Positions 20,760 to 40,163 of a stretch of DNA of 64,000 bases are shown piece after piece (the first letter of the stretch is position 1; each line of letters starts with the position of its first letter). The stretch comes from a virus. Made by a program: the position numbers and the translations under genes. The notes under the pieces are model-generated. The model ran no database searches. It saw only the letters and a program-made list of their open reading frames with translations, and was not told the origin of the DNA. The stretch spans positions 17,477 through 81,476 of the IMG/VR virus record IMGVR_UViG_3300048599_000897; one strand, given 5' to 3'.

Positions 20760-20948
20760 ATGGCCAAGCAGACACAAGACGTGGTGATGACCATTGACGA
20801 CCTGGCGGTTTACCTGAAACTGTCGACATCCACGCTCTACAAACTGTGCGCCGAGGGCAAGGTGCCGGGCACGAAAGTTGGCCGTCACTGGCGGTTCCAC
20901 AAGGCGGTGATCGACCGGTGGCTTGGAGACAAGACCACGAAGGTTTGA
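20760..20948 (+). CDS. Excisionase/AlpA-like HTH DNA-binding protein
   Basis: MTIDDLAVYLKLSTSTLYKL...KVGRHWRF; GGAGGA RBS. Confidence 0.88.
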   Translation: MAKQTQDVVMTIDDLAVYLKLSTSTLYKLCAEGKVPGTKVGRHWRFHKAVIDRWLGDKTTKV

Positions 20949-21016
20949 TCCCTCCAATAGGCAATCATCAGGCATCGTGTTTGGATCACCAATGAAGCGA
21001 TCCGAGAGGAAACAAG

Positions 21017-24000
21017 ATGAGTCAACAAAGACCAAGCCCGATCCTGCCACGTGTGGGCATGCTCGCCGTCACGCGGAATCGACGCGGGATCGTGAGCGAG
21101 GTGCGGCCATTTGGGGGGACACATGGCCCGCTCCAGCACCTGGTTCGCCTCGAATACAAGGACGACCTGCGGCCCGAACGAGATGACTTGATCTGGGAAC
21201 TGGAGCCGGCACCGCAGCTGCTGGAACCGGGCGAGTTGCCTTCATCGCGCAATAACCCGATGCCAGCGGCAGATTTTGACGCGTTAGTTCGGGCGGCGCG
21301 ATGGACGGCCATTAATCCTTTCATCGATCCCGACGATACTGGCCCCGCCACACGCCAGCCCATTTCGGCTCCGTTTCATGGCGCTGTTGAGATTGACGAT
21401 TTTCAGCTTGTTCCGCTGCTCAAGGCGCTGCGGATGCCGCGTGTTAGCCTGCTCATCGCTGACGACGTTGGGCTCGGGAAGACCATTGAAGCCGGCCTGA
21501 TCGTCAGCGAACTGATCATCCGACGCCGCGTAAACCGGGTTCTGATCCTCACCCCGGCATCGCTGCGTATCCAGTGGCGCGATGAAATGTGGTCGAAGTT
21601 TGCAATGCCCTTCGATGTTGTCGACAAGAACTCGTCGCTCAAACTGAAGCGCTCCCTGGGAATCGACGCCAATCCGTGGCGTTGCTCCAACCGAGCCATC
21701 GCCTCGTACCATTATCTGCGTCAGCCCGATGTCCTTGAGCAGTTCCTCAGTGCCAGCAGAACTGCCGAAGGAAGCGCGCACCTGCCGTGGGATCTGTTGA
21801 TCGTCGATGAAGTCCACAACCTCATGCCGGCCCCAATCGGCGAAGACAGCCAGCTTTGTCGGATGCTGCGGCAAATTGCTCCGCTGTTTGAGCACCGGCT
21901 GTTCCTGACCGCCACGCCGCATAATGGCCACACCCGTTCGTTCACGGGGCTACTGGAATCTCTGGACCCCGTCCGCTTCACTCAGACCGATGAACTGCGG
22001 CCGGCGGAACGCGAGCGTGTAAAGCAGGTCGTGATCCGCCGACTTAAACGCGAGATCAACCAGCGCACTAGTCCCCCGCGATTCTGCACCCGCAAGCCAC
22101 CCCAAGCGATTGTGCTGAGCCTATCCCCGGCCGAGCTGGCCTTGGTGACCGCGTTTGACGGCCTGCGTAGCAAGGTGCGGTCGCTAGTGGCGCAGGCGTC
22201 CAAGCAGCGGCGATTAGCCGGGACGTTCGCCATCGAAATCCTCGGCAAACGCTTGCTCAGCGGCCCGACGACCTTTCTAGAATCCTGGCGTCGCTGCAAG
22301 GCGGGTATGATGGAGGAAGCCGCTGCCGCCGATGAAGAAGTGTTGGCCGCAGAGAAGGTCGTCAACGAAGATACTGCCGATGACCGCGAGGCCCAACAAA
22401 GGGAATCCACCGCTGCCGGCGTCGTCGGGGCGTGGATGAAACCCATTGCAGCGGACATTGCCGCCGAAATCGACCAGATCGACTCCGCTGCGGTTAAGCT
22501 CAAAGTCAAACTCGACCAGGATATCGTCGCCCAAGATCCCGCAAGCGATGCCCGCTATAAGGCGTTGTTCGATCTCATCAACAGTTCCCTTCGCTCGGAT
22601 GGCAAATGGCTCGTGGATGAGCGCATTGTCGTCTTCACGGAATACAAGACGACACTCGACTACCTGTTGCGTCGCCTTCGCCACGACTTCGTGGATGCCG
22701 ACCGGTTCCTGTGCCTCTTCGGCGGCATGGATGACCCTCAACGCGAGCAAATCAAGCAGGCGTTCAATGACCCGGAGAACAAAGTGCGTGTACTGGTTGC
22801 CACGGACGCGGCGTCCGAAGGCCTGAACCTCCAGAGTACCGCCCGTTACCTTCTGCATTACGACTGCCCATGGAATCCCTCTCGCCTAGAGCAACGCAAT
22901 GGCCGGCTGGATCGCCACGGCCAGGCGCGGGATGTGCAGACCTACCACTTTGCCAGTACTCAGCATGCTGATCTGCATTTCATGGACTATCTGATTCGCA
23001 AGGTCGATCAGATTCGCGAGGATCTGGGCGCTACCGGGGACCTGTTCGATGAGGCCACGCATCGTCGCTTGATCGAGGGCGAGGATGTCACCGCTGTCCA
23101 GCAGGCCCTGGAACTCGGGTTGGCTAAGGTGAAGACCGCCACAACGGTCCCGGTGGACGACACAATTCGCGACGGCGACGGCAGCGGCGACGACCAAGCC
23201 CAGCAACAGCTCAAGGCTCTGGCAGAGGAACTCGACCTGGACGGCGATGCCGCCTACGGCACGCTCGAAACAGCTCTGGCGGACAAGGTCGGCCATCCGC
23301 AGCTTGGCGAACTTGATAATCTGAAACGCTTCGATCTGAAACGCCCCGACCTCCCGGGCTGGAAGGATTTGATTGACCAGTCCGTCCGCCTGCAGAATCC
23401 CGGCGGCACCCTTGGCCCAGTGCCCAAATTGACCTTCACTCCCGAAGCATTCATGGTGAAGGTCGGGCCGCGCAGTGTTTTCCGGCCGCGTAACGATACG
23501 CTCATGCTGCACCTCGCGCATCCCATCATGCGTAAGGCAACCGGCAGTCTCACCCGCCTTCGGTTCCCCGGCCCCATGTCGGTGTCGCGTTGGGCTGTGC
23601 GAATGGGACCTGTGCCCAAGGGTGCGGATGCCTTGATCGTGCTGTATTTAGAAGAACTCGCGGTCAACGACCTGCGCGAGACGTTCCATCACTGGATTCG
23701 CACGATTCAGTTCCCGGTAAATGGCGACACGCTTGGCCCGTCGTTGCCACATGTGCCCGCGATTAAGCTGCGGAAGGCAACTGCCTGCCGCGATGAAGTT
23801 CTTACCGCCAAGGCTGCTGCGATTCTCGATGACCTCCAGCCCGAGTTACGCAGGTTCATCAACGAGTGGCGCAAGACCATGACGGCGACGCTGAAGAAGC
23901 AACTCAGCATTGACGGAGAACAGGCCCGCAAAGATGAGGACCAGCGATACCAAAGCCGCCAGGGCGAAGTATCCAGCCTGATCGCGGAGAACACACTGGC

Positions 24001-24280
24001 CAAGCTCGAACGCGAAATCGGCTTGCTCAAGTCGCAGCGCAGCCAGGGATTACTATTCGCCAGTCAAGGCGACCTCGACGCGATTGACCGCTCCATCGAA
24101 ATGCGGCAAGAAGAACTGAATCGACGCCGGGCGCATTACGAGGAGATACGCGAACAACTCGCCCGCGAACGGGAACGCGTCGTCAAAGTGCTGTTGCCCA
24201 ACCGCTATGCCCTTCAGGGTGAAGCACAGGTCTTCCCCGTGGCTGTAGAAGTCCGGTTCCCCGCAGGAGGTGCCCAATGA
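21017..24280 (+). CDS. drmD: SNF2-family helicase, DISARM DrmD-like
   Basis: LIADDVGLGKT, IVDEVHN, TATPHNG, SEGLNLQ, WNPSRLEQRNGRLDR. Confidence 0.8.
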   Translation: MSQQRPSPILPRVGMLAVTRNRRGIVSEVRPFGGTHGPLQHLVRLEYKDDLRPERDDLIWELEPAPQLLEPGELPSSRNNPMPAADFDALVRAARWTAINPFIDPDDTGPATRQPISAPFHGAVEIDDFQLVPLLKALRMPRVSLLIADDVGLGKTIEAGLIVSELIIRRRVNRVLILTPASLRIQWRDEMWSKFAMPFDVVDKNSSLKLKRSLGIDANPWRCSNRAIASYHYLRQPDVLEQFLSASRTAEGSAHLPWDLLIVDEVHNLMPAPIGEDSQLCRMLRQIAPLFEHRLFLTATPHNGHTRSFTGLLESLDPVRFTQTDELRPAERERVKQVVIRRLKREINQRTSPPRFCTRKPPQAIVLSLSPAELALVTAFDGLRSKVRSLVAQASKQRRLAGTFAIEILGKRLLSGPTTFLESWRRCKAGMMEEAAAADEEVLAAEKVVNEDTADDREAQQRESTAAGVVGAWMKPIAADIAAEIDQIDSAAVKLKVKLDQDIVAQDPASDARYKALFDLINSSLRSDGKWLVDERIVVFTEYKTTLDYLLRRLRHDFVDADRFLCLFGGMDDPQREQIKQAFNDPENKVRVLVATDAASEGLNLQSTARYLLHYDCPWNPSRLEQRNGRLDRHGQARDVQTYHFASTQHADLHFMDYLIRKVDQIREDLGATGDLFDEATHRRLIEGEDVTAVQQALELGLAKVKTATTVPVDDTIRDGDGSGDDQAQQQLKALAEELDLDGDAAYGTLETALADKVGHPQLGELDNLKRFDLKRPDLPGWKDLIDQSVRLQNPGGTLGPVPKLTFTPEAFMVKVGPRSVFRPRNDTLMLHLAHPIMRKATGSLTRLRFPGPMSVSRWAVRMGPVPKGADALIVLYLEELAVNDLRETFHHWIRTIQFPVNGDTLGPSLPHVPAIKLRKATACRDEVLTAKAAAILDDLQPELRRFINEWRKTMTATLKKQLSIDGEQARKDEDQRYQSRQGEVSSLIAENTLAKLEREIGLLKSQRSQGLLFASQGDLDAIDRSIEMRQEELNRRRAHYEEIREQLARERERVVKVLLPNRYALQGEAQVFPVAVEVRFPAGGAQ

Positions 24281-27200
24281 GCACGGACACTCTCCAGTGG
24301 TGGGGTAATCTTCTTCACGGCGGAATGCTGCTGGACCTGCCCCGGCTCAATCAGGTTTTGACCCCGCCAGTCGATCCATTGCCCTGGTTCACGGTAGACC
24401 GCCTGCGGCGCGAACTCGCCGCATTCGCCAGCGACCCGAGCAAGACTCGCAGCAACTTCGTGGCCTTCGTCCTGGAGAAGGTTTGCATCTTCCATCCGCC
24501 GGAGGGCACCTGGCACCGTGGATCAAAGGTCGACGCCTCCTGGACCCGGCGCGGCTTTGGCAACGAAGCTATCCGCCCTTCCCACCTTTGGGTCGGCCCG
24601 CACGATTCGTACTTGCCGGTCTTCCTCGATGACAACAAGCGGCTGGGTATGGGTCGGGGCAAGCGCATCCACTCGCAGGCCCTGCAATGGCTTCGCGCTA
24701 CGGGCCAATCCCTCGCTATTCTCACCAACGGCCAACAGTGGCGTCTGCTCTTCGCTGGGCTGGATTTTGATGCGTTCGTCGAATGGGACAACAGCCAGTG
24801 GTTTGCCGAGGGCGAGGCCTCCCCCGAACTGGCGGGCTTTCGTTCATTGCTCCAACCACGCCTGTGGCACAATCCGCAACCCGGAACTGCGTCGCCCCTG
24901 CTGGCTGCCATCCGCGAAAGCCGCAAGGGCCAGGCCGATCTGTCAAAGGTTCTCGGCGAACGTGTCCGTCAGGCTGCCGAACACCTCGTCCAGGCCCACT
25001 ACGCTGCGCTCGCCGGCGAGAAGGATCTCCCCCCGGCCGACATCTACCGCGCCGCCGTGCGCATGATCATGCGCCTGGTGGTTGTGCTTTTTGCCGAAAG
25101 CCGCGAGGGCCTGCTCCCTCGCGACAACACTGTCTATTATGGCACCTACAGCCTTCACGGCCTGCGCGAACTACTGGAACGCATCAGCCCACATCGTCTG
25201 GCGGATGCCTACGCAGCCTATCCACGCATTCTGTCGCTGCTGCGGCTGATCCACGGCGGCTCCTACCACGAAGCAATGCCGGTGCCGGCGTATGGTGGCG
25301 AACTTTTCGCACCCGGCCGCGCCGACAGCCCTGACCCCATGAGCCGGGCGCTGTATCTCTTTGAGACGGCGTGCCTGAACCAGAGCCTCATGAGCGATCT
25401 GGACGTCCGCAAGACGCTCGACCTGCTCACCCGCACCCGCGTCAAGATTCGCCAGGGGCGCACGGCAACCTGGATGACCGCGCCGGTGGACTTCTCCGGT
25501 CTGGACAGTGAATACATAGGCATTCTTTATGAAGGTCTGCTCGATTTTGAGCTCCGCTGCGCCGCAAACGACGAACCCATCGTCTTCCTCGCCGTAGGTA
25601 ACGAGCCGGCCCTTCCGCTGAGCACTCTGGAGCAGATGGACGATAGCGCCATCAAGAACCTCTTGGAGAAACTCAAAGACACCTCCGCCGATGACGAGGA
25701 GGAAGAGGCCGAAGATGAGCCCGATGAATCGGCCGAGGCCGAAGATAATGCTGAAGCCGAAGTTGAGGAAGTCGCGGAAGTAACCGCCGAAGAAGAAGCC
25801 GTCGAGGCGCAACCCGACGCCGATTCGCACTACACGCTCCAGGCTCGCGCCGAGAATTGGGCCAAACGGGTGTGCCAGATCGCCAACCTGGTCGCCCGAC
25901 CTCGCGGCACAATGACGCCGGAAAAGCAGATGCAGTACGAACGGGCGCTGGCGGCCAAGGCTCGGCAACTGGTCGTCAAGGTTGTTCTGCCCGGCGAGTG
26001 GTATCTGGTTCGATGGGGAGGGACCCGCAAGGGCTCGGGCACGTTCTACACCCGGCCGCCATTGGCTGTGCCTACCGTGCATCGCACGTTGCGTCCCCTT
26101 GCCTATGACCCACCTGTGGGCGCAGATGGCAAACCTAACACGATGGCTCCGCCCCATGTGTGGAAGGTCAAGATGCCAGAAGCCATTTTGTCTCTGAAGG
26201 TCTGCGACCCAGCCTGCGGTTCGGGCTCGTTCGATCTGGCGGCGCTGCGTTTTCTCACCCAGGCACTTTACGAGTCAATGCAGAAGCATGGCCGTTTCCG
26301 GCAGCACAACGGCCGCGACATCATGGACCTCATCATGGACAGCCAGGGCCGCGAATCCCTGGTCAACGAAGCCTTGCCTTGCCGCCCGGATGATGATGAT
26401 TTTGAGCCGCGAGTGAAAGCCATCCTCCGCCGGTACGTGGTGGAGCGCTGCATCTATGGCGTCGATCTCGACCCACTGGCCGTGGAGTTGTGCCGCCTGT
26501 CGCTCTGGATCGAAACCCTCGACCGCTCCTTGCCCCTGACCTTCCTCAACCACAAAATCAAGGTCGGTAACTCTCTCGTGGGCGCGTGGTTCGACCAATT
26601 CCTCCACTACCCGGCGATGGCATGGGAGCGCGAGGGCGGAGACAAGAACCACACTAATGGTGTTCACTTCCAGAAGGAATCATGGACCAAGGCGATCAAA
26701 GAATTTGCCAAAAAGGTCAAGATAGACCTGATCCACTTCATCGAAGGGGCGCAGCTCTTCTACCCCGTGGACCTCGCCACCGTTCGCAATGGTCACGATG
26801 CTGCCGAGGCCGCGCTCAAGGAAATCCACAACCTTGGCATCGCACAGGTGGATCAGCGTGCTGAGAAATACGAAACACTGCGTGCTGACACCGCGTTTTT
26901 GAAGCTCAAGGAGGCCTTTGATCTCTGGTGTGCCATGTGGTTCTGGCCCGCCGACCAGCTCGCCCACGCTCCACTTCCCACGCAGTTTGCCGAAGGAAAG
27001 CTTAACAACACCGCCCGTGAGGTCGTCTATGGGCTATCTCGGCAGATGCGGTTTTTCCACTGGGAGTTGGAGTTCCCTGACGTGTTCAACGTGGGCTCGG
27101 GCGGTTTTGACGCCGTGTTGGGCAATCCGCCGTGGGACATTTCCAAGCCCAATAGCGCTGAATTTTTTTCTACGGTCGATCCCCTTTACCGTGGGTACGG

Positions 27201-29289
27201 CAAGCAAGAGGCAGTCGGTATGCAACGTCGCTATTTTGAACGCGATGCCACGACTGAGCGCCGATGGCTAGAGTATACCGCCCGTCTCAAAGGCATGAGT
27301 AACTGGGTCAAGTACGCCGGTTTCCCATTTGGCGACCGGGTCTCAACAGATGAAGATGGAAAACAGTCGCACGACCTGAACCTCGGCGACCGTGGCCGCG
27401 ACAGCTTCCATAGCTCCGAGCGCCGGCACAAAAAATGGAAGCAGAAACGAGAGGAATCCTCTGGCTACGCCGACGTTTGCCATAGCTTCCGCCACCAAGG
27501 TTCCGCCGACTTGAACTTGTACAAACTCTTTTTGGAGCAGGCCCACTCAATCCTGGCGGACGGCGGACGACTGGGTTTTGTTGTCCCTTCTGGGCTCTAC
27601 TCCGACGTCGGCACAGGTAGCCTACGCCGTCTTTTCATCGGCAATTGTCGCTGGGAATGGCTCTTTGGCTTTGAGAACCGCGCTGGCATCTTCGACATTC
27701 ATCGGTCGTTCAAGTTCAACCTTGTTATTATCGCCAAGGGTGGGCAGACGGACACAATCCGTACGGCATTCATGCGTCGAGACCTAGCAGATTGGGAGCG
27801 AGGGGAAGCGTTGGCCACGCTGTATCCACGCGAGCAAGTGATTCGATTCAGTCCCGTATCGCTGGCAATCTTAGAATTGACTACACAGAAAGACTTGGAC
27901 CTTCACAGTCAGATGTACGCAACTTCCACGCCAATTGGCGGCAAGGATGCCTGCATCCCGGTCAGGTATTTTAATGACGAGTTCCACATCACAAAGGACT
28001 CCCGGCTCTTTCCACCCTTGCCAAAATGGATTAACGAGGGCTTCCAGATGACCGAGGAGGGTGTCTGGCGAAGAGGATCTGATGTTGCGGTCCCGCTCTA
28101 CGAAGGACGGATGATTGACAGCTTTGATTTCAGTGCCAAAGCTTGGATAAGCGGGAAAGGCCGGACCGCAGTATGGGATGAAGTCCCTTGGCAAAACAAG
28201 CGATTCGGGCCGCAATATTTGATGAGCCAGCCTGATTCGTGCAAGAGCAAGTACGTGGATCTCAAGCGTCCCGTAATCGTCTACAAAAAGGTTACATCGA
28301 GCACAAACCGACGAACCCTCTATGCCACAATAAGCACACGAATACCAAGTTGCGACTCCGCGCCGGTGCTCATGCCACTTGCCAACCGACTGCGCAACTG
28401 CTTACGACTGTGCGCTGTACTCAACTCGTTGGCTTGTGATTACACGTTCCGGCGACGAATGTCAGGCGTGACAGTTACGTGGCAGTATATGTCTGAAACG
28501 CCTTGTCCAAAACGCATCGATGATTCGTTAACAATGTTTGTTGCTCGCCTCGCACTTGCCCATGCACATTTTGCACCAGAGTGGTTGATGCTTTGTGCGG
28601 GGCAACCACTGCAATCATGGAAAGCGAAATGGGCTTGCACCGAGCACGAGCGTCGGCGGCTGCGTGCAATCGTTGATGCTGTTGTCGCCGCCTCATACAA
28701 CCTCAGTGCCGGTGATTTGCTCTGGATCCTCGACGAGTGCGACTGGCCCAAAGTGTGGCTACGCAGCAACCTGTCCTCCCGCGGACGGAATCCAAAAGGC
28801 TTCTGGCGTGTCGACAATGACCTGGACCCAGAGCACCGCCATACCGTTCTCTCCCTAGTGGCTTTCCGGGACCTCCAGAAACAGATTGACACATGCGGCG
28901 GCGACGAAGCCGAGGGCATAAAAGCGTTCTGTAGCCAGAACGACGGTGATGGATGGATGCTGCCTGAAACGCTCCGCTTGGCCGACTATGGTCTTGGCCA
29001 TGACGACCGTGCCAAGGAGTACCAGCCCGTTCGCGAGTGCTTTGGCCCGCGATTCTACGACTGGCAACTCGCCCAAACCTCCGAGGAAAGCTGGAAGGAA
29101 TGCCATCTCCACGCCCGCAGTCTCTTGGGCGCGGCGGGTTATGAACGCCTTCTTGCTGAGATTGAAGGCAAGCCTGCCCCAGATGCCGGTCCCGCTGCTG
29201 CCCCCAACACCATCGACCACCGAAGCGGCACGCTCTTCGACACGGACGATGCACCCCTATTTCAGAAATCCGTCAGGAAGGAAAAATAG
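24277..29289 (+). CDS. Large N6-adenine DNA methyltransferase (DrmMI / Type IIG-like) with a variable TRD
   Basis: RKGSGTFYT, DPACGSGSF, IYGVDLDP, FHWELEFP, GNPPW; AT-richer TRD segment at ~27.85-28.75 kb. Confidence 0.88.
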   Translation: MSTDTLQWWGNLLHGGMLLDLPRLNQVLTPPVDPLPWFTVDRLRRELAAFASDPSKTRSNFVAFVLEKVCIFHPPEGTWHRGSKVDASWTRRGFGNEAIRPSHLWVGPHDSYLPVFLDDNKRLGMGRGKRIHSQALQWLRATGQSLAILTNGQQWRLLFAGLDFDAFVEWDNSQWFAEGEASPELAGFRSLLQPRLWHNPQPGTASPLLAAIRESRKGQADLSKVLGERVRQAAEHLVQAHYAALAGEKDLPPADIYRAAVRMIMRLVVVLFAESREGLLPRDNTVYYGTYSLHGLRELLERISPHRLADAYAAYPRILSLLRLIHGGSYHEAMPVPAYGGELFAPGRADSPDPMSRALYLFETACLNQSLMSDLDVRKTLDLLTRTRVKIRQGRTATWMTAPVDFSGLDSEYIGILYEGLLDFELRCAANDEPIVFLAVGNEPALPLSTLEQMDDSAIKNLLEKLKDTSADDEEEEAEDEPDESAEAEDNAEAEVEEVAEVTAEEEAVEAQPDADSHYTLQARAENWAKRVCQIANLVARPRGTMTPEKQMQYERALAAKARQLVVKVVLPGEWYLVRWGGTRKGSGTFYTRPPLAVPTVHRTLRPLAYDPPVGADGKPNTMAPPHVWKVKMPEAILSLKVCDPACGSGSFDLAALRFLTQALYESMQKHGRFRQHNGRDIMDLIMDSQGRESLVNEALPCRPDDDDFEPRVKAILRRYVVERCIYGVDLDPLAVELCRLSLWIETLDRSLPLTFLNHKIKVGNSLVGAWFDQFLHYPAMAWEREGGDKNHTNGVHFQKESWTKAIKEFAKKVKIDLIHFIEGAQLFYPVDLATVRNGHDAAEAALKEIHNLGIAQVDQRAEKYETLRADTAFLKLKEAFDLWCAMWFWPADQLAHAPLPTQFAEGKLNNTAREVVYGLSRQMRFFHWELEFPDVFNVGSGGFDAVLGNPPWDISKPNSAEFFSTVDPLYRGYGKQEAVGMQRRYFERDATTERRWLEYTARLKGMSNWVKYAGFPFGDRVSTDEDGKQSHDLNLGDRGRDSFHSSERRHKKWKQKREESSGYADVCHSFRHQGSADLNLYKLFLEQAHSILADGGRLGFVVPSGLYSDVGTGSLRRLFIGNCRWEWLFGFENRAGIFDIHRSFKFNLVIIAKGGQTDTIRTAFMRRDLADWERGEALATLYPREQVIRFSPVSLAILELTTQKDLDLHSQMYATSTPIGGKDACIPVRYFNDEFHITKDSRLFPPLPKWINEGFQMTEEGVWRRGSDVAVPLYEGRMIDSFDFSAKAWISGKGRTAVWDEVPWQNKRFGPQYLMSQPDSCKSKYVDLKRPVIVYKKVTSSTNRRTLYATISTRIPSCDSAPVLMPLANRLRNCLRLCAVLNSLACDYTFRRRMSGVTVTWQYMSETPCPKRIDDSLTMFVARLALAHAHFAPEWLMLCAGQPLQSWKAKWACTEHERRRLRAIVDAVVAASYNLSAGDLLWILDECDWPKVWLRSNLSSRGRNPKGFWRVDNDLDPEHRHTVLSLVAFRDLQKQIDTCGGDEAEGIKAFCSQNDGDGWMLPETLRLADYGLGHDDRAKEYQPVRECFGPRFYDWQLAQTSEESWKECHLHARSLLGAAGYERLLAEIEGKPAPDAGPAAAPNTIDHRSGTLFDTDDAPLFQKSVRKEK

Positions 29290-29850
29290 ATGCCGGCCAC
29301 ACAAATCCATTCCATTCCTGGTCTGAAAAACCTGTTTAACGGGTGTTCCGATGAAGTGCGGGCGCATTTTGAACATCTCCCGTCGCTGCTGGACAACTAT
29401 CCGCTTGAGGTTGCTCTCGGTTATGTGTTTCACCGCCTGGAGCTGGGACAGAACATGGCGCTTTATTGCGGGGTAGTCAAACTCCACCGCGCCTGCTGCA
29501 AGGTTGCCAGCAACACCATCGATTCGCACCACATGACGCGAGAAGGGTTCGTTGAGCTGTACAAGACGGTGTTCGACCTCGATCTGCCAGCCGATGCCAC
29601 CCGAGAACTTCGCACTGCCGAAAAGACGCGCGATGCAGTAATGCACGGAGGGGACGCGTCCGAGGCTCGTCTTCGCAATGCCATTGGTCGAGTTCTCGAA
29701 TTCGCCGAGGCACTAAACGACGAATTACATAATCACCACCAGTGCAAGCCATTTTCTGGGTATTGGAGGGGTTTTGCTGGCCGACTCAAAAAACTCGACG
29801 CAAGAACGACACGGTACATGCTGAAAGGCATGGGCTTCAGCCTAGCTTGA
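29290..29850 (+). CDS. HEPN-motif protein (putative RNase)
   Basis: All-helical ~186 aa with R-x4-H motif RDAVMH (29629-29646) and upstream Glu (LELG). Confidence 0.65.
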   Translation: MPATQIHSIPGLKNLFNGCSDEVRAHFEHLPSLLDNYPLEVALGYVFHRLELGQNMALYCGVVKLHRACCKVASNTIDSHHMTREGFVELYKTVFDLDLPADATRELRTAEKTRDAVMHGGDASEARLRNAIGRVLEFAEALNDELHNHHQCKPFSGYWRGFAGRLKKLDARTTRYMLKGMGFSLA

Positions 29851-32605: not shown

Positions 32606-33151
32606 ATGAATCTTCCTCGTAGTGGTTCGATCCGTCGGGCGCTCAAAGGAACAATCCGTGAGATCAAAGCCGCGCGGAAAGAGCTCAATGGCCGAATTTC
32701 CAAGTTGATGGCCCACGGCGAATATGAGAAGGCCCAGGCGATGATTGCCCAGGCCAAACAGACCCAAAGTTTCGAGGATGAAGTGCAAACTTTACGGAAA
32801 CGGCTTTCGGCTCTGAATGGCGGAGTCGGTGATTCTAAACCTGCCCCATCGGAAAGCCGTGCGGATTGGGAGTACTACCAGCCGATCTTGAAATGCCTGG
32901 CTGATTTTCCTGGCGAGGTGACGCGTCCACAAATTGAAAGGTCGTTCTCGGAACGATTTGATTCCTGGTTACTTCCAGGGGATCGCGAGGCGATGAGCGG
33001 CGGGACGCGATGGCAAGTAATGATCAAGCGATCAAAAAAACACATGCTATCAGAGGGATGGATCGAAGCACGAAACAAGCTATCGTGGAATATCACGCCC
33101 GCCGGAAGAAAAGTCGCCCAGCAAGACCAACCGACCACACAAACGAAATGA
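32606..33151 (+). CDS. Coiled coil plus Mrr_N-like winged-helix protein
   Basis: PILKCLAD...RW...LSEGWI...W.ITPAGR, the Mrr N-terminal wHTH pattern; no catalytic domain. Confidence 0.65.
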   Translation: MNLPRSGSIRRALKGTIREIKAARKELNGRISKLMAHGEYEKAQAMIAQAKQTQSFEDEVQTLRKRLSALNGGVGDSKPAPSESRADWEYYQPILKCLADFPGEVTRPQIERSFSERFDSWLLPGDREAMSGGTRWQVMIKRSKKHMLSEGWIEARNKLSWNITPAGRKVAQQDQPTTQTK

Positions 33152-33157
33152 GCAACT

Positions 33158-36100
33158 ATGGCCATTAATCCTATCACTTACACTGAAAAAGTTGTGCGCA
33201 GCTTTCTGCGATATCAGTTGACGGCATATCCGTTTACCGATCCTCGGCTGCATAGCCAGATGCGTGACCTCCTGAACATGGACTCGGCGCGGCACACGCC
33301 GCTGTTGCAGGGGCCGTATATCAGTCTTTCTCGGAGTTTCAAGCAAGGTGCATCCATTGCCGACCTTGTGAGCGCCGGCATTTTCCACGGTCACATGAAG
33401 GCGATCATCGGCGAGCGGGTATCGCACCTCTATGGGCATCAGGAGAACGCGATCCGCGCCGTGGTCAGTGGGAAGACAACGCTGGTCTCGACGGGGACGG
33501 GCTCAGGTAAGACCGAGTGCTTCTTGTACCCGATTATCAGCAAATGCCTGCAGATTCGGGACGCCGGTGAACCGGCTGGAATCTCGGCGGTGATCGTCTA
33601 CCCGATGAACGCGCTGGCGGAGGACCAACTCGACCGTTTGCGGGGGCTACTGGCCGGCAGCGGGATCACGTTCGGCATGTATGTCGGCAAGACGCCGGAG
33701 TATGAGCGCGAAGTGTCGGGACACAGATTGCAACCAGGCTCAACGCGAGCCGACTACGAGGCGGTTTTAAAGAAATATCGGGAACAGGGCCGCCCCGATG
33801 CCGTGCATCCCACTGAAGAGGTCTGCTCGCGTGAGAAGATGCGCACGCCCGGCAGCCAGCCAAGGATTCTGCTGACCAACGTGAAACAGCTTGAACTGCT
33901 GCTGACACGGCAGATGGACGTGGAGCTGTTTGAGAAGGCCCGGCTGGACTACTTGGTGTTCGACGAGGCACACACGTTTACCGGGATCAATGGGGCGGAA
34001 ACAGCGTGCCTGATCCGCCGCCTTCGCAAGTATTGTGGCAAGACCGCGAAGCAGACAACCTGCGTGGCGACTTCGGCGACGATTGTGGATGTGTCCGATC
34101 CGGATGCGGGACGGAAATTTGCCTCCCGGTTCTTCGGGACACCAGCGGAAGACGTCGTGTGCGTCCACGAGGAATATGAATCAGAGACCTTTAAGCCCAA
34201 GGGGGGCGTGCCCAACGCTCCGAGTAATCCGGGAGAATTGCTTAAGCGCACACTTGCGGCGGTGGACGCGGAGAGCCCGGAGCCTGAAATCCGCGATATC
34301 TATGCCAAGTTGTGCGGGGTCAAATTACCCGTTGGGGACTGGCAAATCGCACTGCATGATGCCCTTTTGGAAAATGTCATTGCATCGAGAATCCGCGTTG
34401 GTCTCCAAGGAGTCCGGCGGATGGAGCTGTTGATGGATGAACTGGAACATTCAGTCAAGCGGGCGGTTTCTGAAGAAGAACTCTTGACCTATCTGGCGCT
34501 GGGGGCAACGGCGTTTCGTGATGGGCGTCCTATCTTCCGGCCCGTCGTGCATGCCTTTGTTCGTGGTATTCCCGGTGCCGTCGTGACCTTCCCGCTGGAT
34601 GCTGACATTAAGCTATGGCTTAGCAGCGAGGATGAGATCGCGAGGTGTGGCGACAAGGGAACATGGCGCGTGCCGGCACACACATGCACTACCTGCGGCC
34701 AACACTACTTCGTCACCTGGCTCAAAGACTTTAAATTCATAGGCAAGGAACCCGAAGGCGGGCAACTGGACGATGATGGCCACGTGTGGTGGGAGGCGAT
34801 GGCTCAAACGAACGGTGGCAAGCGGGTGGTGCTGGTGGATCGGGTTATCTGCCAGGAAGAGGACGAAGATCTTGAGGACCATGAACGCCTCACGCCGCTG
34901 TTCTTCTGTCGCCATTGCGGGGCTGCGTTCTCCCATGAGACGACCAAGTGCCGGGGTTGCGGCAGCATGGAGAAGCCGGTGCGGTTGTACGCGGCACGTA
35001 GCTCTAAGGATCATCCTGGATACCTGAGCAGTTGCCTGTCATGCACGTCCAAGGGCAGACCTATGGGGCGGCGCTACCGTGAGCCGATGCGCCCAGTGCG
35101 TGCGGTGAACGTAGCAGATGTGCATGTTCTGGCGCAGGACATGGTGCATCATGCCGAGCGCAAGCGGCTGTTGCTCTTTGCTGACAATCGGCAGGACGCC
35201 GCTTTCCAGGCGGGGTGGATGAAGGACCACGCTCGCCGCTTCCGCTTACGACGGTTGATGGCCGATTCGATGAAGGGCGGTCCAGTCTCAATTGGCGATA
35301 TGGTTAACAAGATTGATATTGAACTTGATGCCAATGATGCGCTGTCGCGGGCATTAATTCCGGAGGTCTGGCGCGTCGTGCCAAAGGAAGGAACCGGAGG
35401 CACGCATGCTGACGAGCGGCGGCACTACCTTCGTATTCAGGTTTTGCGGGAAATCGCCACGCCGGCCAATGAACAGCGTGGCCTAGAACCGTGGGGCCGT
35501 CTCCGCGTGACGTATATCGGACTGGAAGTCGGAGCCCAGTTCATTCAGAAGTGGGCTAACAAGCTTGGCTTACCTCCGGAAGACTTGAAGGGCGGCATCG
35601 AAACCCTTCTGGACCAACTGCGCCGCCAGCGCATGTTGCACGACCCGCACCGCGAGATTTTCGGCCGCTGGTGGAATGAGGGCGACCGCGAGATTCAGCG
35701 TGGTTATTTGCCCGTTCTGCCCGGTGGGCCGCAGGGGATGAAGTTGCGGATCGACACTGGCGACAATCGAGACCGCGTGCGCCCGTGGTTAGGAGATCGA
35801 AACACAATCGTACGGCAAATTGCTCGTAAGTGGGGAGTGGCCGATGCGGAAATCCCGCACTTCTTGGAGGCTTTGTGGGATTACCTGCGCGCCGATTCGC
35901 TTGGCATCCTGTCGCCAGTTACGCTCAAGAGTAATAAGGACAGACCGCTGCCGGCATGTAGCGGTGTTTACCAGATTGAGTCGTCGTGCCTTCAGTTGAG
36001 TGAAAACCACGGTTATCACCGATGTAAGAAGTGCCGGCGCAAGGTGTCCCGTCGGGCACCCCATAATCGATGCTTAGCGTGGCAGTGCGATGGCGAGATG

Positions 36101-38605
36101 GAATTTGTCAAAGAGGACCCGGATAACTATGACCTCCAGTTGCTCGATCAGGGATACTCGATGCTGCGGCCCGAGGAACACACCGCGATGGTGCCCCAGG
36201 ACCAGCGGGAGCGTGTCGAGAACTACTTCAAAGGCTCCGGTGATGCGGTAAACACGCTGGTCTGCACTCCCACGCTCGAACTTGGCGTGGATATCGGGTC
36301 GCTCGATTCAGTGTTGATGAGAAATGTTCCGCCATTGCCGGCGAACTACTGGCAGCGGGCAGGCCGCGCTGGTCGCCGGCATCGGATGGCAGTGAACCTA
36401 TGCTATTGCCGGCCCGTGTCACACGACCGTGCATATTATGGCGAACCACTGAAGATGCTGCAGGGTAAGGTCGATCCGCCGGCGTTCAATCTGCGGAACG
36501 ACCTAATGGTCGCCAAACACGTCCACGCAACGGTCTTCACACGCCTGTTCCAACTTACCCGTGGAGGATCGGGGCTACTCGATGCAGACCGCGAGAAGAT
36601 TCAGGCAACGCTCACCGAGATGTTACCCAGAAGGATTTCCTCCTACCTTTTTGAATCGACCGGTCATGTCCGCAGCGGACCGTTCGACGTGTCACCGCTG
36701 GCGCAGCTCATCCAGGCCTATCGTGCGGACCTTCTGCAATACCTGGTCGGTGCTTTCCAGCAGGGATGGCCCGCCGCCGACCAGGCAGCGACGTCCACCT
36801 CGGCATTGGAGCAACACCTCGATGCGATGCCTGGCCAGATGGCTGCAGTACTCAAGCGACTGCGGAAGCGGTTGCAATGGGCGCATGCCGAGATCACTCG
36901 GCTCAACGAGATCCGCGCGAAATTTGGCACGCTCGAAAGCGAAGATGATGCGCACTACAAGCGCTGCGACCGACTGATCAAGAAACTCAAGGGATTTCAG
37001 ACCCGCAAGCGTGCCGAAGCCGAGGGTATAGACGACATCAATACGTACGGGGTCTTGGCGGTAGAAGGCTTTCTCCCCGGCTATGGGTTGGATACGGGGT
37101 CCGTTACCGGCATGGCAGAAGTTCCATATTGGCAACTTGGCAGTATGGACTTTGAATTGCCGCGTCCCACCAGCATGGCAGTTCGGGAATACGTGCCAGG
37201 AAACCTGATTTATGCTAATGGGCACCGCTTCGTCGCCCGCCGATTTCATCGTGAGGCTGAAGAAGAGCGATCCGAAATGCCGGTCTTTGAGGTCAATGTG
37301 GACCGCGAAGCAGTGTCGGAGACCAGCATCGCGGCAGCTCCGGGGGTAATTGCGTCAGCAACCTTGCGAACCATCTCCGTCTGTGATGTGGACTTGGTTC
37401 ACATATCCCAGATCTCCGATGAGGAAGAAACGCGATTCCAGATGCCGGTCTCCGTGTACGGCCGCGAAAAAGGACGGCACAACGGCGGTGTTGCGCTCAA
37501 ATGGGGAACACGTAAGCTCCTGCATCGGCGGGGAGTCCATCTTCGGCTGGTGAATGTTGGTTCCACACCGGTGATCGAACAGAATCTGGAACTCGGTTAT
37601 CCGATCTGCGCCGTTTGCGGCCAGAGCGTGTCGCCACTTTCCTCCACGGCCCAAATCGACAGCTTCAGCAAGCAGCACGAGGAGCGTTGCGGGCGAAAAC
37701 CAGAGCGACTCGGGTTTTTCGCCGATGTTGTGGCCGATTGCCTGGTGATGCCGGATTGCCCAAGCCGTGAGGAAGCCTATAGCGTGATGGAAACCATCCG
37801 CATGGGTGCCACACAGGTACTGGACATGCACTTGGACGACCTCCAGGTACTCGTGATCGGCCACGTTGACCGAGACGAAGTTGACGCCGTCCTGTGGGAC
37901 CCGATGCCCGGTGGATCGGGGTTGTTGGATCAGATTCGCGAGCACATGGCCGAGGTTGTCGCTGCAGCCATTGCGCTCGCAAAGGGTTGTCCCAGCGCTT
38001 GCGAGAAGGCTTGTGTGGATTGCCTGCAGACCTTCCGCAACGCTTACTACCACCGGCACCTCAATCGTCACACGGCCGCCGCCACACTAGGCGACTGCGG
38101 TGTGACCGTGACGGAGCTACACCCAATTCCGCCCCAACAGCCGACGACGCAGAACCACAACCCGTCGGCCATGCCCGTCAACGACGCGGAGACTAAACTG
38201 AAACACCTGATTGAAGCGGCTGGGTTCACAACCGGCCAGTTCCAGCAGCAGATTCGATTTAAGCAGTCTATCAGCCTGGGGCACCAAATCGGGAGCACCA
38301 CCCCCGATGTTTCTTTTGCGGGCGATGAGGATGACCCTGACGATCACGGCGTTTGCATCTACCTAGACGGAATGAGCGCTGGCCTGCATGGAAACCCGGT
38401 AACTGCGGCCAAGGACCAGGAGATCCGATCCTGGCTGAGATCGCATGGTTACGAGGTGATCGAAATCACGGCGGTCGAACTAGACGACCAGCAGGCGATG
38501 GTCAGACACTTCAGGAAACTGGCGAAGTACCTGGCGGGCAAAGAACTTGCAGACAAAGTGGTTACCGATACGACATGGTTTACGAAATCCGCACCGGCTG
38601 AATAG
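33158..38605 (+). CDS. YprA/Hrq-type DEAH helicase + DUF1998 + C-terminal Vsr/DUF559-like nuclease
   Basis: TGTGSGKTECF, YPMNALAEDQ, DEAH, TLELGVDIG, QRAGRAGR, WDPMPGGSG...C..AC..CL, TTPD...YLDG...KDQEIR..L...GYEVIEI; several CxxC pairs. Confidence 0.88.
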   Translation: MAINPITYTEKVVRSFLRYQLTAYPFTDPRLHSQMRDLLNMDSARHTPLLQGPYISLSRSFKQGASIADLVSAGIFHGHMKAIIGERVSHLYGHQENAIRAVVSGKTTLVSTGTGSGKTECFLYPIISKCLQIRDAGEPAGISAVIVYPMNALAEDQLDRLRGLLAGSGITFGMYVGKTPEYEREVSGHRLQPGSTRADYEAVLKKYREQGRPDAVHPTEEVCSREKMRTPGSQPRILLTNVKQLELLLTRQMDVELFEKARLDYLVFDEAHTFTGINGAETACLIRRLRKYCGKTAKQTTCVATSATIVDVSDPDAGRKFASRFFGTPAEDVVCVHEEYESETFKPKGGVPNAPSNPGELLKRTLAAVDAESPEPEIRDIYAKLCGVKLPVGDWQIALHDALLENVIASRIRVGLQGVRRMELLMDELEHSVKRAVSEEELLTYLALGATAFRDGRPIFRPVVHAFVRGIPGAVVTFPLDADIKLWLSSEDEIARCGDKGTWRVPAHTCTTCGQHYFVTWLKDFKFIGKEPEGGQLDDDGHVWWEAMAQTNGGKRVVLVDRVICQEEDEDLEDHERLTPLFFCRHCGAAFSHETTKCRGCGSMEKPVRLYAARSSKDHPGYLSSCLSCTSKGRPMGRRYREPMRPVRAVNVADVHVLAQDMVHHAERKRLLLFADNRQDAAFQAGWMKDHARRFRLRRLMADSMKGGPVSIGDMVNKIDIELDANDALSRALIPEVWRVVPKEGTGGTHADERRHYLRIQVLREIATPANEQRGLEPWGRLRVTYIGLEVGAQFIQKWANKLGLPPEDLKGGIETLLDQLRRQRMLHDPHREIFGRWWNEGDREIQRGYLPVLPGGPQGMKLRIDTGDNRDRVRPWLGDRNTIVRQIARKWGVADAEIPHFLEALWDYLRADSLGILSPVTLKSNKDRPLPACSGVYQIESSCLQLSENHGYHRCKKCRRKVSRRAPHNRCLAWQCDGEMEFVKEDPDNYDLQLLDQGYSMLRPEEHTAMVPQDQRERVENYFKGSGDAVNTLVCTPTLELGVDIGSLDSVLMRNVPPLPANYWQRAGRAGRRHRMAVNLCYCRPVSHDRAYYGEPLKMLQGKVDPPAFNLRNDLMVAKHVHATVFTRLFQLTRGGSGLLDADREKIQATLTEMLPRRISSYLFESTGHVRSGPFDVSPLAQLIQAYRADLLQYLVGAFQQGWPAADQAATSTSALEQHLDAMPGQMAAVLKRLRKRLQWAHAEITRLNEIRAKFGTLESEDDAHYKRCDRLIKKLKGFQTRKRAEAEGIDDINTYGVLAVEGFLPGYGLDTGSVTGMAEVPYWQLGSMDFELPRPTSMAVREYVPGNLIYANGHRFVARRFHREAEEERSEMPVFEVNVDREAVSETSIAAAPGVIASATLRTISVCDVDLVHISQISDEEETRFQMPVSVYGREKGRHNGGVALKWGTRKLLHRRGVHLRLVNVGSTPVIEQNLELGYPICAVCGQSVSPLSSTAQIDSFSKQHEERCGRKPERLGFFADVVADCLVMPDCPSREEAYSVMETIRMGATQVLDMHLDDLQVLVIGHVDRDEVDAVLWDPMPGGSGLLDQIREHMAEVVAAAIALAKGCPSACEKACVDCLQTFRNAYYHRHLNRHTAAATLGDCGVTVTELHPIPPQQPTTQNHNPSAMPVNDAETKLKHLIEAAGFTTGQFQQQIRFKQSISLGHQIGSTTPDVSFAGDEDDPDDHGVCIYLDGMSAGLHGNPVTAAKDQEIRSWLRSHGYEVIEITAVELDDQQAMVRHFRKLAKYLAGKELADKVVTDTTWFTKSAPAE

Positions 38606-38617
38606 GAGGAGTGACAA

Positions 38618-39454
38618 ATGGGCGACACAAAACTCGACCAAGTTGGGATTTGGACAGAGCTCAAGCTGCAGATTCTGCGGGACTATTCTGCCGCCTATGC
38701 GGCGATCTTGAAGAAACAGTCCGCAATCCGCCACTACGCCTACATTGATGGCTTCGCGGGAGCCGGAACTCATATTTCCAAGACGACGGGTGAGGAGATT
38801 GAGGGAAGCCCGACGATCGCGCTGGGGCAGCAGTTCACGCACTATCACTTCGTCGACCTCGACGGCACTCGGGCGGCGCGCCTAATTCAGCTCGCAAATG
38901 GCAAGACCAACGTCACCGTGCATCAAGGGGATTGCAACGATGTGCTGCTTAATAAGGTCTTTCCAACGTGTCGATACGAAGACTACCGACGTGCGCTCTG
39001 CCTGCTGGACCCTTATGGCCTCAATCCGAACTGGGAGGTCGTTCATCGCGCCGGGCAGATGAAGAGCATCGAGATCTTCCTGAATTTCATGATCATGGAC
39101 GCGAACATGAATGTCCTGTGGGAGAACCCAGACCGGGTTCCCGAGACGCAGGTTGCTCGCATGAACGCCTTTTGGGGCGATGACTCCTGGCGTGGTGCTG
39201 CGTACAAAACGAATCAGGGTCTGTTCGGAGCGATCCAGGAGAAGGGATCAAACGATGATGTCGTGAATGCGTACAGGAAACGATTGAAGGACGTCGCCGG
39301 CTTCAATTTCGTACCTGCACCGTTGCCAATGAGAAACAGCCAAGGTGCCATCGTCTACTACCTCTTCTTCGCATCCCACAATCAGACGGGGGATAAGATT
39401 GCCCAGGCGGTCTTCAACAAGTACCGAAACGGAGGACTCGCCCATGGCCAGTAA
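38618..39454 (+). CDS. tcmP: Three-Cys-motif partner protein (SAM-methyltransferase-like fold)
   Basis: WTELKLQIL, YIDGFAGAG, GSP, LLDPYG, YYLFFAS. Confidence 0.85.
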   Translation: MGDTKLDQVGIWTELKLQILRDYSAAYAAILKKQSAIRHYAYIDGFAGAGTHISKTTGEEIEGSPTIALGQQFTHYHFVDLDGTRAARLIQLANGKTNVTVHQGDCNDVLLNKVFPTCRYEDYRRALCLLDPYGLNPNWEVVHRAGQMKSIEIFLNFMIMDANMNVLWENPDRVPETQVARMNAFWGDDSWRGAAYKTNQGLFGAIQEKGSNDDVVNAYRKRLKDVAGFNFVPAPLPMRNSQGAIVYYLFFASHNQTGDKIAQAVFNKYRNGGLAHGQ

Positions 39455-40163
39455 GTCAAAGATCGAGTGGACAGAGTCCACATGGAACCCAGTCACGGGC
39501 TGTACCAAGATCAGCCCGGGGTGTAAGCACTGCTATGCCGAACGCATGGCCAAGCGGTTGCAGTCGATGGGGCAGCCCAACTACGCGAAGGGTTTCTCAC
39601 TTACCGTTCAGCCGCATGTGGTTAATGGACCGCTGTCGTGGAAAACGCCACAGATGATCTTCGTCAATTCGATGAGCGATCTCTTCCACAAGGACGTGCC
39701 CCTTGAGTTCATCCTCCAGGTGTTTGATGTCATGAACCGGGCACACTGGCACCAGTTCCAGATTCTGACGAAGCGGTCCGGTCGGCTGCTCCAACTGGCC
39801 CCGGAACTGCCCTGGGCGAAGAATATATGGATGGGGGTTTCGGTTGAGTCGGAGCAGTACACGTCACGCATTGACGATCTTCGCAATACCGAAGCGGCCA
39901 TCAAGTTTCTGTCACTCGAGCCGCTTCTGGGTCCGCTCCCGAATCTCGACCTGGCCGATATCGACTGGGTCATTGTCGGCGGGGAGTCCGGCCCCCGCGC
40001 CAGGCCGATGGATGAGGCATGGGTGGTCGAGATCAAAGAACAATGCACGGCGGCCAAGGTGCCCTTCTTTTTCAAGCAATGGGGCGGAACCAACAAGAAG
40101 AAGGCCGGTCGGACGCTGCGCGGTCGTACATGGGACCAAATGCCCGTGGGCGTGAGTGCTTGA
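39444..40163 (+). CDS. DUF5131 / phage Gp37-Gp68 family (radical-SAM-like three-Cys protein)
   Basis: TWNPVTGCTKISPGCKHCYAE, NSMSDLFH, LTKRS, SLEPLLG, GGESG, FFFKQWGG. Confidence 0.9.
   Translation: MASKSKIEWTESTWNPVTGCTKISPGCKHCYAERMAKRLQSMGQPNYAKGFSLTVQPHVVNGPLSWKTPQMIFVNSMSDLFHKDVPLEFILQVFDVMNRAHWHQFQILTKRSGRLLQLAPELPWAKNIWMGVSVESEQYTSRIDDLRNTEAAIKFLSLEPLLGPLPNLDLADIDWVIVGGESGPRARPMDEAWVVEIKEQCTAAKVPFFFKQWGGTNKKKAGRTLRGRTWDQMPVGVSA

Follow-up and report, generated by a model that had tools for sequence, protein, structure and literature searches.

A predicted ARMADA type I system in the cargo arm of a prophage, with defence-type genes embedded in it and appended to it

A stretch of viral DNA in the IMG/VR collection carries a run of ten genes in which a DNA translocase, a giant methyltransferase and a still longer helicase stand together with several genes of unrelated families, and this arrangement raises two questions: to what kind of system the three large genes belong, and whether the genes lodged among them are its working parts or its passengers. 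The stretch, called the window below, comprises 64,000 nucleotides (positions 17,477 to 81,476) of the 102-kb provirus record IMGVR_UViG_3300048599_000897, and the run of genes occupies window positions 20760-40163. An initial annotation of the window, made from the letters without database searches, had taken the run for a DISARM/ARMADA-like operon, possibly an undescribed subtype, with four extra effectors built into it. In our reading, which we hold to be very likely, the cluster is an ARMADA type I system located in the cargo arm of a prophage, into which, and behind which, mostly independent defence-type modules have been placed.

According to the open reading frame (ORF) list of the window, the ten genes (g0 to g9, Table 1) are all encoded on the + strand and tightly packed, with successive spacings from g0 to g9 of 68, -4, 0, 10, 63, 33, 6, 12 and -11 bp. 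The co-directional genes, small gaps or overlaps and single terminator of the initial annotation agree with this list and with the hairpin that closes the cluster; a search for a second strong + strand terminator between 20600 and 40400 found none, and nothing comparable was seen inside the cluster. The embedded and appended genes are probably co-transcribed with the core. The parts that had been named by eye (SNF2, N6-adenine methyltransferase, DUF932, HNH, Mrr_N, a single helicase chain, TcmP and DUF5131) were each recovered by family searches.

The core genes and their assignment to ARMADA type I

ARMADA is a DISARM-related anti-phage system that was named in 2025 (Bell et al., 2025, bioRxiv 10.1101/2025.09.15.676423; here and below we draw on parts of that report). 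In the tree published there, its YprA-like helicase groups with that of Druantia and not with that of DISARM, and its partners, a BrxHII/RapA-like SNF2 protein and a PglX-like methyltransferase, are common to class 1 DISARM. Type II adds ArmD, a RelE-GajB helicase, in the strict order A-B-C-D. Type I is described as being without ArmD and usually having the helicase first, the order A-B-C being that of many archaea and cyanobacteria, and the ArmC of both types is described as ending in a Vsr-type nuclease, with 3hrl as the type I hit.

The first two core genes of the cluster, g1 and g2, correspond to ArmA and ArmB. ArmA scores 648 bits with the NCBIfam DISARM_DrmD model, whose equivalog cutoff is 610, and 639 and 244 bits with the PADLOC models for DrmD and BrxHII, respectively; its Walker A motif (GLGKT, residue 152) and its DEVH box (residue 264) are intact. 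The armB gene, overlapping armA by 4 bp, encodes a protein matched by the PADLOC DrmMI model over residues 7-954 (402 bits), with an intact S-adenosylmethionine motif (DPACGSGSF, around residue 648) and the catalytic NPPW at residue 950 (27124-27135). ArmB also gives a full-length match of 1456 bits to the PADLOC REase_MTase_IIG model PDLC03622. Its Pfam domains are of methyltransferase kinds alone, residues 1-608 being without a match and a permissive Pfam search (E up to 5) adding nothing for the N-terminus, and we take the "type IIG" label to be the database naming of the ArmB family.

The third core gene, g7, encodes ArmC as one long chain in which the helicase motifs are intact (GSGKT at residue 115, DEAH at 269) and which has seven CxxC motifs, with pairs at residues 510-629 and 956. 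The type I helicase is also characterised by BrxA-like, zinc-binding beta-barrel and MarR-like inserts, and in this regard the CxxC pairs are what was noted in g7. Among the PADLOC models DruE is the best family, with a partial match of up to 345 bits; DrmA reaches 52 bits over the Helicase_C region only, and the DrmB models give no match. The C-terminal tail escaped the permissive Pfam search, and neither a sequence-profile search of PDB sequences nor Foldseek alone gave a significant Vsr match for it. An AlphaFold2 (AF2) model of the last 190 amino acids, built with an alignment of 19 relatives and re-aligned structurally with VIA, gave a Z of 10.9 to the catalytic domain of I-Bth0305I (3r3p_A; root-mean-square deviation 2.3 over 97 residues), of 8.8 to E. 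coli Vsr (1cw0_A) and of 8.7 to NGO0050 (3hrl). In the alignment of relatives the pattern TTPDV...YLDG.S..LHG is conserved, its PD, YLDG and H residues being invariant. By the model, then, ArmC carries its own Vsr-type nuclease, as a companion note to the initial annotation had supposed.

A scan of species-representative genomes found full-length relatives of g7 in 80 species, at 54-83% identity, in taxa that include Planctomycetota, Acidobacteriota, Binatia, Gemmatimonadota, Spirochaetia and Syntrophia. Two of these genomes tie the helicase to the published classification. Those of Syntrophus buswellii (CP175563.1, locus L056) and of a Gemmatimonadales bacterium (contig DASYEH010000008.1, locus L055) each have a single g7 homologue, aligning over the full length at about 56-59% identity (59% and 57%), and Table S1 of Bell et al. 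(2025) enters the helicases of these genomes as "ARMADA Type I helicase". No ArmD-like UvrD/RelE gene was found in the cluster with Pfam or NCBIfam, a TcmP and a DUF5131 gene following armC instead, so that the system is to be placed with type I and not with type II. In helicase, Vsr nuclease, SNF2-methyltransferase pair and lack of ArmD the core agrees with each type I feature examined, and on these sequence grounds we identify it as ARMADA type I. The DISARM/ARMADA-like label of the initial annotation was thus well chosen. The undescribed subtype that it suggested is not upheld, the core being that of a published system and the embedding of defence genes being likewise published. Compared with the described type I, which shares ArmA (SNF2), ArmB (adenine methyltransferase), ArmC (YprA-DUF1998-Vsr) and the lack of ArmD, the present locus differs in having the order A-B-C, given by Bell et al. 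as the type I minority in the parts of the report used here, in holding four unrelated genes between armB and armC, and in being borne on a prophage.

Could the core be instead a class 1 DISARM locus (drmD-drmMI-drmA-drmB-drmC) in which DrmA and DrmB have fused and DrmC has been lost? The scores of g1 with the DrmD equivalog and of g2 with DrmMI, together with the drmD-drmMI order of the first two genes, would suit such a derivation, and the two systems also have in common a DUF1998-bearing helicase and, presumably, methylation-based discrimination. It is at the helicase that the resemblance fails. The DrmA profiles touch only its generic Helicase_C part, DrmB profiles do not match it, DruE matches far better, and its relatives have been assigned to ARMADA type I, in a clade that groups with Druantia in the published tree; helicase and DUF1998 here form one chain of a different YprA clade, and a fused Vsr domain stands where DISARM has a separate PLD partner. 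As had been stated from the letters alone, the cluster has no DrmC, no PLD domain being found in its ten proteins with Pfam, PADLOC or NCBIfam, and no separate drmA or drmB gene of the DISARM clade, there being one 1815-aa chain in their place. The absence of all three is explained by a single ArmC chain with its own Vsr-type nuclease. We accordingly disfavour the DISARM derivation and give it next to no credence. As to Druantia, its DruE profiles match g7 in part, the similarity of g7 to Druantia III DruE is distant only, and no PADLOC model for the partner genes (DruA-D, DruM/F/G, DruH) matches any protein of the cluster.

ARMADA type II, represented by armABCD of E. coli O157:H7 / NCTC 12900, shares with the present locus the A-B-C order and the domain logic. 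Its direct, non-abortive anti-phage defence needs the Walker motifs of ArmA and ArmC and the NPPW motif of ArmB, mutation of the latter having abolished defence (Bell et al., 2025; mBio 2026, PMC13463889, also drawn on in part), and all of these motifs are intact here. The differences are the missing ArmD and the length of ArmC, 1815 aa here and 2117 aa in E. coli; g7 is related to the E. coli O157 type II ArmC only distantly, at 26-37% identity in pieces (best E-value 2.4e-30).

Table 1. Positions of the cluster genes and of associated features in window coordinates
Feature	Position	Strand	Basis or remark
Large serine recombinase, left edge of cargo region	18522-20528	-	Pfam Resolvase, Recombinase, Zn_ribbon_recom
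Candidate promoter, TTGACA-17 nt-TGAAAT	20665-20693	+	Upstream of g0; read by eye
g0, small HTH_17 DNA-binding protein (excisionase/AlpA/MAD1-like)	20760-20948	+	Pfam HTH_17, 56 bits
g1, ArmA, SNF2/RapA/BrxHII-like translocase (= DrmD)	21017-24280	+	NCBIfam DISARM_DrmD
g2, ArmB, 1670-aa PglX/DrmMI-like N6-adenine DNA methyltransferase	24277-29289	+	Pfam Eco57I, N6_Mtase
g3, 186-aa all-helical HEPN-like (DUF3644-like) protein, putative latent RNase	29290-29850	+	First base directly follows the ArmB stop
g4, DUF932/TIGR03299 phage-plasmid-like protein, embedded cargo	29861-30877	+	Pfam DUF932, 147.6 bits; TIGR03299, 205 bits
g5, 543-aa HNH protein with DGQHK-motif module and long helical region	30941-32572	+	Pfam HNH, residues 30-78
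g6, coiled coil and Mrr_N winged helix, partner of g5	32606-33151	+	Pfam Mrr_N, 35.3 bits (cutoff 29.5)
g7, ArmC, 1815-aa YprA-family DExH helicase with DUF1998 and C-terminal Vsr-type nuclease	33158-38605	+	Pfam DEAD, Helicase_C, MZB
Predicted Vsr-type PD-(D/E)xK nuclease domain of ArmC (about residues 1672-1794)	38171-38539	+	AF2 model and VIA
g8, TcmP, three-Cys-motif partner; PADLOC PDC-M41A	38618-39454	+	TIGR04474, 186 bits (cutoff 53)
g9, DUF5131 (Gp37/Gp68-like, three-Cys); PADLOC PDC-M41B/M30B	39444-40163	+	Pfam DUF5131, 346 bits
Intrinsic terminator-like hairpin closing the cluster	40286-40317	+	14-bp stem with 8 GC pairs, then T run
Type I restriction-modification region of prophage B (L178; G000:C1:91684-102296)	74208-84820		Outside the window; place equivalent to that of the ARMADA region in prophage A

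What lies between armB and armC

To the second question, whether the lodged genes belong to the system, the comparison of loci gives a fairly direct answer. All window proteins were compared by tblastn with the 80 loci of the g7 relatives (numbered L in what follows), of which 48 species-level loci have an ArmB-ArmC distance. In nearly all loci whose flank reaches that far, ArmA and ArmB share the strand of ArmC and are situated upstream of it, the order C-A-B being confined to L064. The distance from the end of ArmB to the start of ArmC runs from 97 bp to 9.4 kb in the 48 loci, and in five loci seemingly without ArmB the gene lies 12-19 kb upstream, again on the same strand. What fills the interval varies: 143 of the 191 slot ORFs in the 48 loci have no relative in any other slot. 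Among the 127 ORFs of at least 150 aa, Pfam recognised M78 peptidases (8), HTH_3/31 (7), AAA_15/AAA_21 (6; PtuA/GajA/AriA-like), Schlafen AlbA_2 (5), AbiEii and Fic (4 each), ThiF, Macro and JAB (2-3 each), as well as RNA ligase and DUF3800, and the PADLOC models that named slot genes were RmrA, CapP, PtuA, AriA, GajA and mad3. The genes inside the present slot recur in hardly any of these loci, DUF932 in two, g3 in one (L008) and the HNH and Mrr_N genes in none. Because the content is this varied and mostly of single occurrence, we read the interval as a collecting place for defence-type cargo and not as the site of four fixed subunits, and the notion of four built-in effectors, recurring as they do in zero to two surveyed loci each, has to be given up.

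Nesting of this kind has a precedent in the defence genes embedded in DISARM, BREX and Type I restriction-modification (RM) operons (Payne et al., 2024, bioRxiv 10.1101/2024.01.29.577857), with which the present locus shares unrelated defence genes set co-directionally inside a multi-gene restriction system. In the parts of Bell et al. (2025) considered here we found no mention of a variable internal slot. Two further observations concern the surveyed loci and their distribution. ArmB is split into two or three frames in the genomes of L053 and L065 (G003:C2:43888-49085; G005:C1:2002098-2005095), whose slots are 12-19 kb, and the split points to a decaying core in some of the loci that have expanded. 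Tblastn with ArmC found one near relative in plasmid collections, a frameshift-ridden Synechocystis plasmid locus, and no useful relatives in phage collections.

The individual genes of the present slot and its tail differ in how much their relatives tell. The DUF932 gene g4 recurs in the slots of L007 (92% identity) and L068 (78%) and in no other; a literature search limited to titles and abstracts found no paper featuring the family. The g5 family is far larger, with more than 2200 homologues at about 70-79% identity, and FDGQHK (31586-31603) is, with many other residues, invariant in 32 homologues. A profile search of PDB sequences with g5 matched Cas9 HNH domains only, and a permissive Pfam search (E up to 5) found nothing for the rest of the protein; language-model leads (Atlas) pointed to GmrSD_N, ParB_N and DUF6551 at 0.92-0.93. 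The DGQHK module may thus be called ParB/DndB-like by way of a lead, from its motif and from these language-model hits. With nucleases of the GmrSD/BrxU/SspE type (a ParB-like DUF262 plus an HNH-like DUF1524 domain) g5 shares an HNH domain and a DGQH(K/R) module resembling ParB/DUF262; it differs from them in having the HNH domain first, in lacking a Pfam match to DUF262 or DUF1524, and in being usually accompanied by a separate Mrr_N partner.

That partnership is seen well beyond ARMADA. An Mrr_N gene follows the g5 homologue in L087-L093 and in a stand-alone locus, where the pair sits by itself between ATP-synthase and glycosyltransferase genes. L087-L089 have the arrangement ArmB-g3-like-(270 aa)-AbiEii-HNH-Mrr_N-ArmC, with ArmC 69% and HNH 79% identical to those of the present cluster. 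L093 places the pair in an island with integrase, AAA_13, DUF2130 and UvrD genes, and in two places, a conjugative element (L094) and a small insertion, the HNH gene has no Mrr_N partner. The idea that HNH and Mrr_N form a part of ARMADA was rejected in view of the stand-alone occurrences, and we read the two genes as a self-contained cassette which has at times come to lie in restriction loci. Beside this we note that L090 (1-10174), like L091 and L092, combines a 949-aa SNF2 protein, a 1561-aa methyltransferase 25% identical to ArmB and a 664-aa protein, followed by two small genes and by HNH and Mrr_N, with no YprA helicase; these loci may represent a different SNF2-methylase system with the HNH cassette as its sole nuclease, or an ARMADA-like locus minus ArmC.

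Behind armC, the adjacent g8 and g9 constitute the PADLOC candidate pair PDC-M41 A/B (236 bits for g8 with PDC-M41A, 410 bits for g9 with PDC-M41B), such candidates being predictions made from embedding. The g9 frame is open from 39345, and for its start an ATG, together with the Pfam match, favours 39444. Homologues of g9 were found behind ArmC in L007 and, in L045 and L066, within the slot. Among titles and abstracts, we found no paper featuring the TcmP/DUF5131 pair.

A HEPN-like gene shared by ARMADA and Type I restriction loci

The first gene of the slot, g3, needs to be treated separately from the others. No Pfam match was obtained for it, also at permissive E up to 5, and no PADLOC v2 model matches it. 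It has about 125 relatives, and in 46 homologues R114 and H119 are invariant, within a motif (RDAVMH, 29629-29646; RDxxMH) of the R-x4-H form. Two members of the family have precomputed matches to PF12358 (DUF3644), and DUF3644 is a HEPN domain present in the validated HEC-08, a protein embedded in the Hma system, whose defence depends on the histidine of its Rx4-6H motif (Payne et al., 2024). The AF2 model of g3 is all-helical, with a pLDDT of 93. HEPN chains (SsR10, AF_0298, 4nqf, HepS, TT1696 and Csm6) make up 8 of the 14 top VIA rows for this model, with a Z of only 5.8-6.7, too low to be relied on where helical bundles are compared, and Foldseek alone gave nothing significant. The initial annotation had called g3 HEPN and g5 DGQH/ParB-like; neither name has a Pfam match behind it, and both find some backing in motifs and weaker evidence. 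RNase activity of g3 is accordingly to be regarded as putative.

What distinguishes g3 is where its relatives are found. In a metagenome scan, close relatives (at least 54% identity) stood in ARMADA loci ten times, in Type I RM loci six times and once beside an SNF2 gene. A relative follows ArmB in L097; in L100, L108, L115, L120 and L121 its match ends 13-20 bp before that of ArmC, and in L100 and L108 it is the sole item between the ArmB match and ArmC. In L095 and L096 a relative is placed, within a Type I RM system, between hsdS and hsdR, its start overlapping the hsdS stop. Four informative close relatives (L101, L105, L106 and L119) are outside any restriction system, and the neighbours of distant relatives are of various kinds, TIR, AbiJ, ApeA-HEPN and methylase genes among them; the supposition of an invariable embedding of g3 in restriction systems was dropped on these counts. 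As an aside, in L105 (236-2781) the close g3 relative is followed by a 292-aa gene and then by a DUF1848 (radical-SAM-like) gene, an echo of the TcmP/DUF5131 theme.

These placements call to mind PrrC of the EcoprrI system. PrrC's own slot is between hsdS and hsdR in the EcoprrI locus, and in both cases a HEPN-type protein comes right after a modification or specificity gene. Let us suppose, then, that the cluster is a truly layered system, in which the ARMADA or Type I RM complex holds one or more of the embedded genes, above all g3, in a latent state. The position of g3 would fit, its start being the base after the ArmB stop, its close relatives standing directly after ArmB in the ten metagenome loci as well as in L008 and L087, and others between or beside hsdS and hsdR in the six Type I RM loci; so would the invariant R-x4-H motif, considering the dependence of HEC-08 on its Rx4-6H histidine. 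However, PrrC consists of an N-terminal ABC ATPase and a C-terminal HEPN nuclease, whereas g3, with 186 aa, lacks the ABC-ATPase sensor domain. The relatives outside restriction systems and the mixed company of the distant ones also count against the supposition, as do the presence of g3 in 1 of the 48 species-level ARMADA loci and the modest Z values of its HEPN fold, and for the other three inner genes there is no positional evidence of coupling. On balance we regard a latent hold on g3 as rather unlikely, while keeping it in mind. A further step, that the held protein would come into action as a second line of defence once the complex is disabled by an anti-restriction protein of a phage, as PrrC does with EcoprrI, is similarly tentative. 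According to Payne et al. (2024), PrrC is met with almost exclusively inside Type I RM systems. We do not count g3 as a member of the PrrC family, and it may nonetheless work in a PrrC-like manner: its family could be a minimal DUF3644-like HEPN RNase specialised to methylation-based restriction systems and retaliating when the complex is inhibited, a proposal that is reasonable as a hypothesis and that we consider rather unlikely. If it were true, one guard family would serve two unrelated restriction machineries, without a sensor ATPase of its own.

Returning to our preferred reading, an ARMADA type I core with mostly independent modules in and behind it, several considerations weigh against it and should be stated together. 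The keeping of one position across ARMADA and Type I RM systems means that g3 is not random cargo. It recurs together with HNH and Mrr_N genes in L087, whose ArmC is 69% identical, so that some functional coupling among these genes is conceivable. The case for co-transcription comes entirely from spacing and from the lack of internal terminators. In the parts of their report used here, Bell et al. (2025) place the A-B-C order of type I mainly in archaea and cyanobacteria, and we find it dominant in many bacterial phyla. Lastly, the experiments described in those parts concern type II alone, and the activity of type I and its dependence on methylation are carried over to it by analogy.

The prophage setting and the predicted working of the locus

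The provirus record holds two related tandem prophages, A (of which the window contains 1-18559) and B (43758-64000 within the window), with the same gene order and 70-85% nucleotide identity over the genes for packaging, head and tail. Related serine integrases stand at the start of both, the one belonging to prophage A at record positions 1-1566, upstream of the window. The ARMADA region, about 18.5-43.7 kb, comes after the tail-end genes of prophage A and before the integrase of prophage B, and a large serine recombinase sits between those tail-end genes and g0. Prophage A comes to about 61 kb with this cargo, its sister B to about 36-41 kb, a difference that suggests an island added to the phage and not functions of its core. 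At the equivalent place, after its tail genes, prophage B has a Type I RM system with the order hsdR (1091 aa)-AbiGi-like (277 aa)-hsdM-hsdS, plus two Mrr_cat nucleases, so that both sister prophages carry, in the same place, a restriction system with an embedded gene of abortive-infection type.

One might ask whether a cluster in this position serves the prophage itself, its methyltransferase shielding the phage DNA in new hosts and its helicases and nucleases acting in replication or anti-defence. The location inside an IMG/VR provirus just after the tail genes would be natural for such a role, and DUF932 and DUF5131 are typical phage and plasmid families. Yet in many phyla the same three-gene core stands in the chromosome with no phage genes around it, the slot cargo elsewhere is of defence and abortive-infection families, ARMADA II is anti-phage by experiment in the published parts cited above, and the size of prophage A relative to its sister points to an added island. 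We think this role very improbable, and stay with a defence system carried as cargo. Another thought, suggested by the SNF2, giant methyltransferase, DUF932 and HTH_17 genes, had been anti-restriction cargo of a conjugative element; it was set aside, the window being a provirus and the core ARMADA.

The beginning of the cluster deserves a few words. The initial annotation had given it a sigma70-like promoter; a consensus scan reported no sigma-70 site upstream on the + strand, and what can be upheld is a candidate read by eye, with a perfect -35 and a -10 at 4/6 whose hexamer is without A at position 2. We consider it a plausible, unproven promoter. The g0 frame opens at 20703, and the ATG at 20760 is preceded by a GGAGG Shine-Dalgarno sequence. 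Its product matches NCBIfam MAD1 with 57.6 bits, under the cutoff of 80, and an excisionase domain with 53 bits, and a homologue occupies the same place in L008; g0 is likely to be either a regulator of the operon or an excision factor of the island. MADS too has a MAD1 gene, similar to the g0-type HTH_17, and in L096 a small HTH_17 gene (4401-4625) precedes hsdM, the first gene of the Type I RM system that carries the g3 homologue. The HTH_17 gene may be a type of regulator common to methylase-based systems.

Two observations belong to the flanks of the cluster. On its left, a DUF3431 glycosyltransferase-like gene (17417-18559, +) and the serine recombinase gene (18522-20528, -) converge with a 3' overlap of 38 bp (18522-18559). 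After the cluster, window positions 40795-42853 hold a gene for a peptidase of the M78 (ImmA/IrrE-like) kind and a PIN_12 gene of divergent orientation, and M78 plus HTH pairs are the commonest cargo in the slots of other loci (8 of 127 ORFs).

By homology to ARMADA II and DISARM, we can sketch how the locus might work. ArmB would mark host and prophage DNA by N6-adenine methylation; ArmA, as SNF2 translocase, and ArmC, as YprA helicase, would engage incoming DNA without the mark, and the C-terminal Vsr-type nuclease of ArmC would cut it. The outcome would be direct, non-abortive immunity, shielding the lysogen from superinfection. To this machinery the armB-armC slot would add, in the present locus, the HEPN-like putative RNase g3, the DUF932 gene and the nuclease cassette of HNH-(ParB-like) and Mrr_N genes, and the TcmP/DUF5131 pair (PDC-M41) would be appended downstream. 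Methylation-based discrimination between self and non-self, like the anti-phage activity of the locus as a whole, is in this sketch what we infer from the better-studied relatives.

Irrespective of these details, the locus offers a good instance from nature of layered defences borne on a prophage. What had looked like a new DISARM variant moves into ARMADA type I, in a family that was named in 2025 and has been tested, in the published parts used here, as type II only; no current view is overturned by this. A slot that holds up to about 19 kb of varied cargo in many bacterial phyla supports "guilt by embedding" as a way of finding defence genes, and the HEPN-like g3 gene, the HNH and Mrr_N cassette and the TcmP/DUF5131 pair are three candidates worth testing. 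The two sister prophages, for their part, illustrate how temperate phages spread layered defences.

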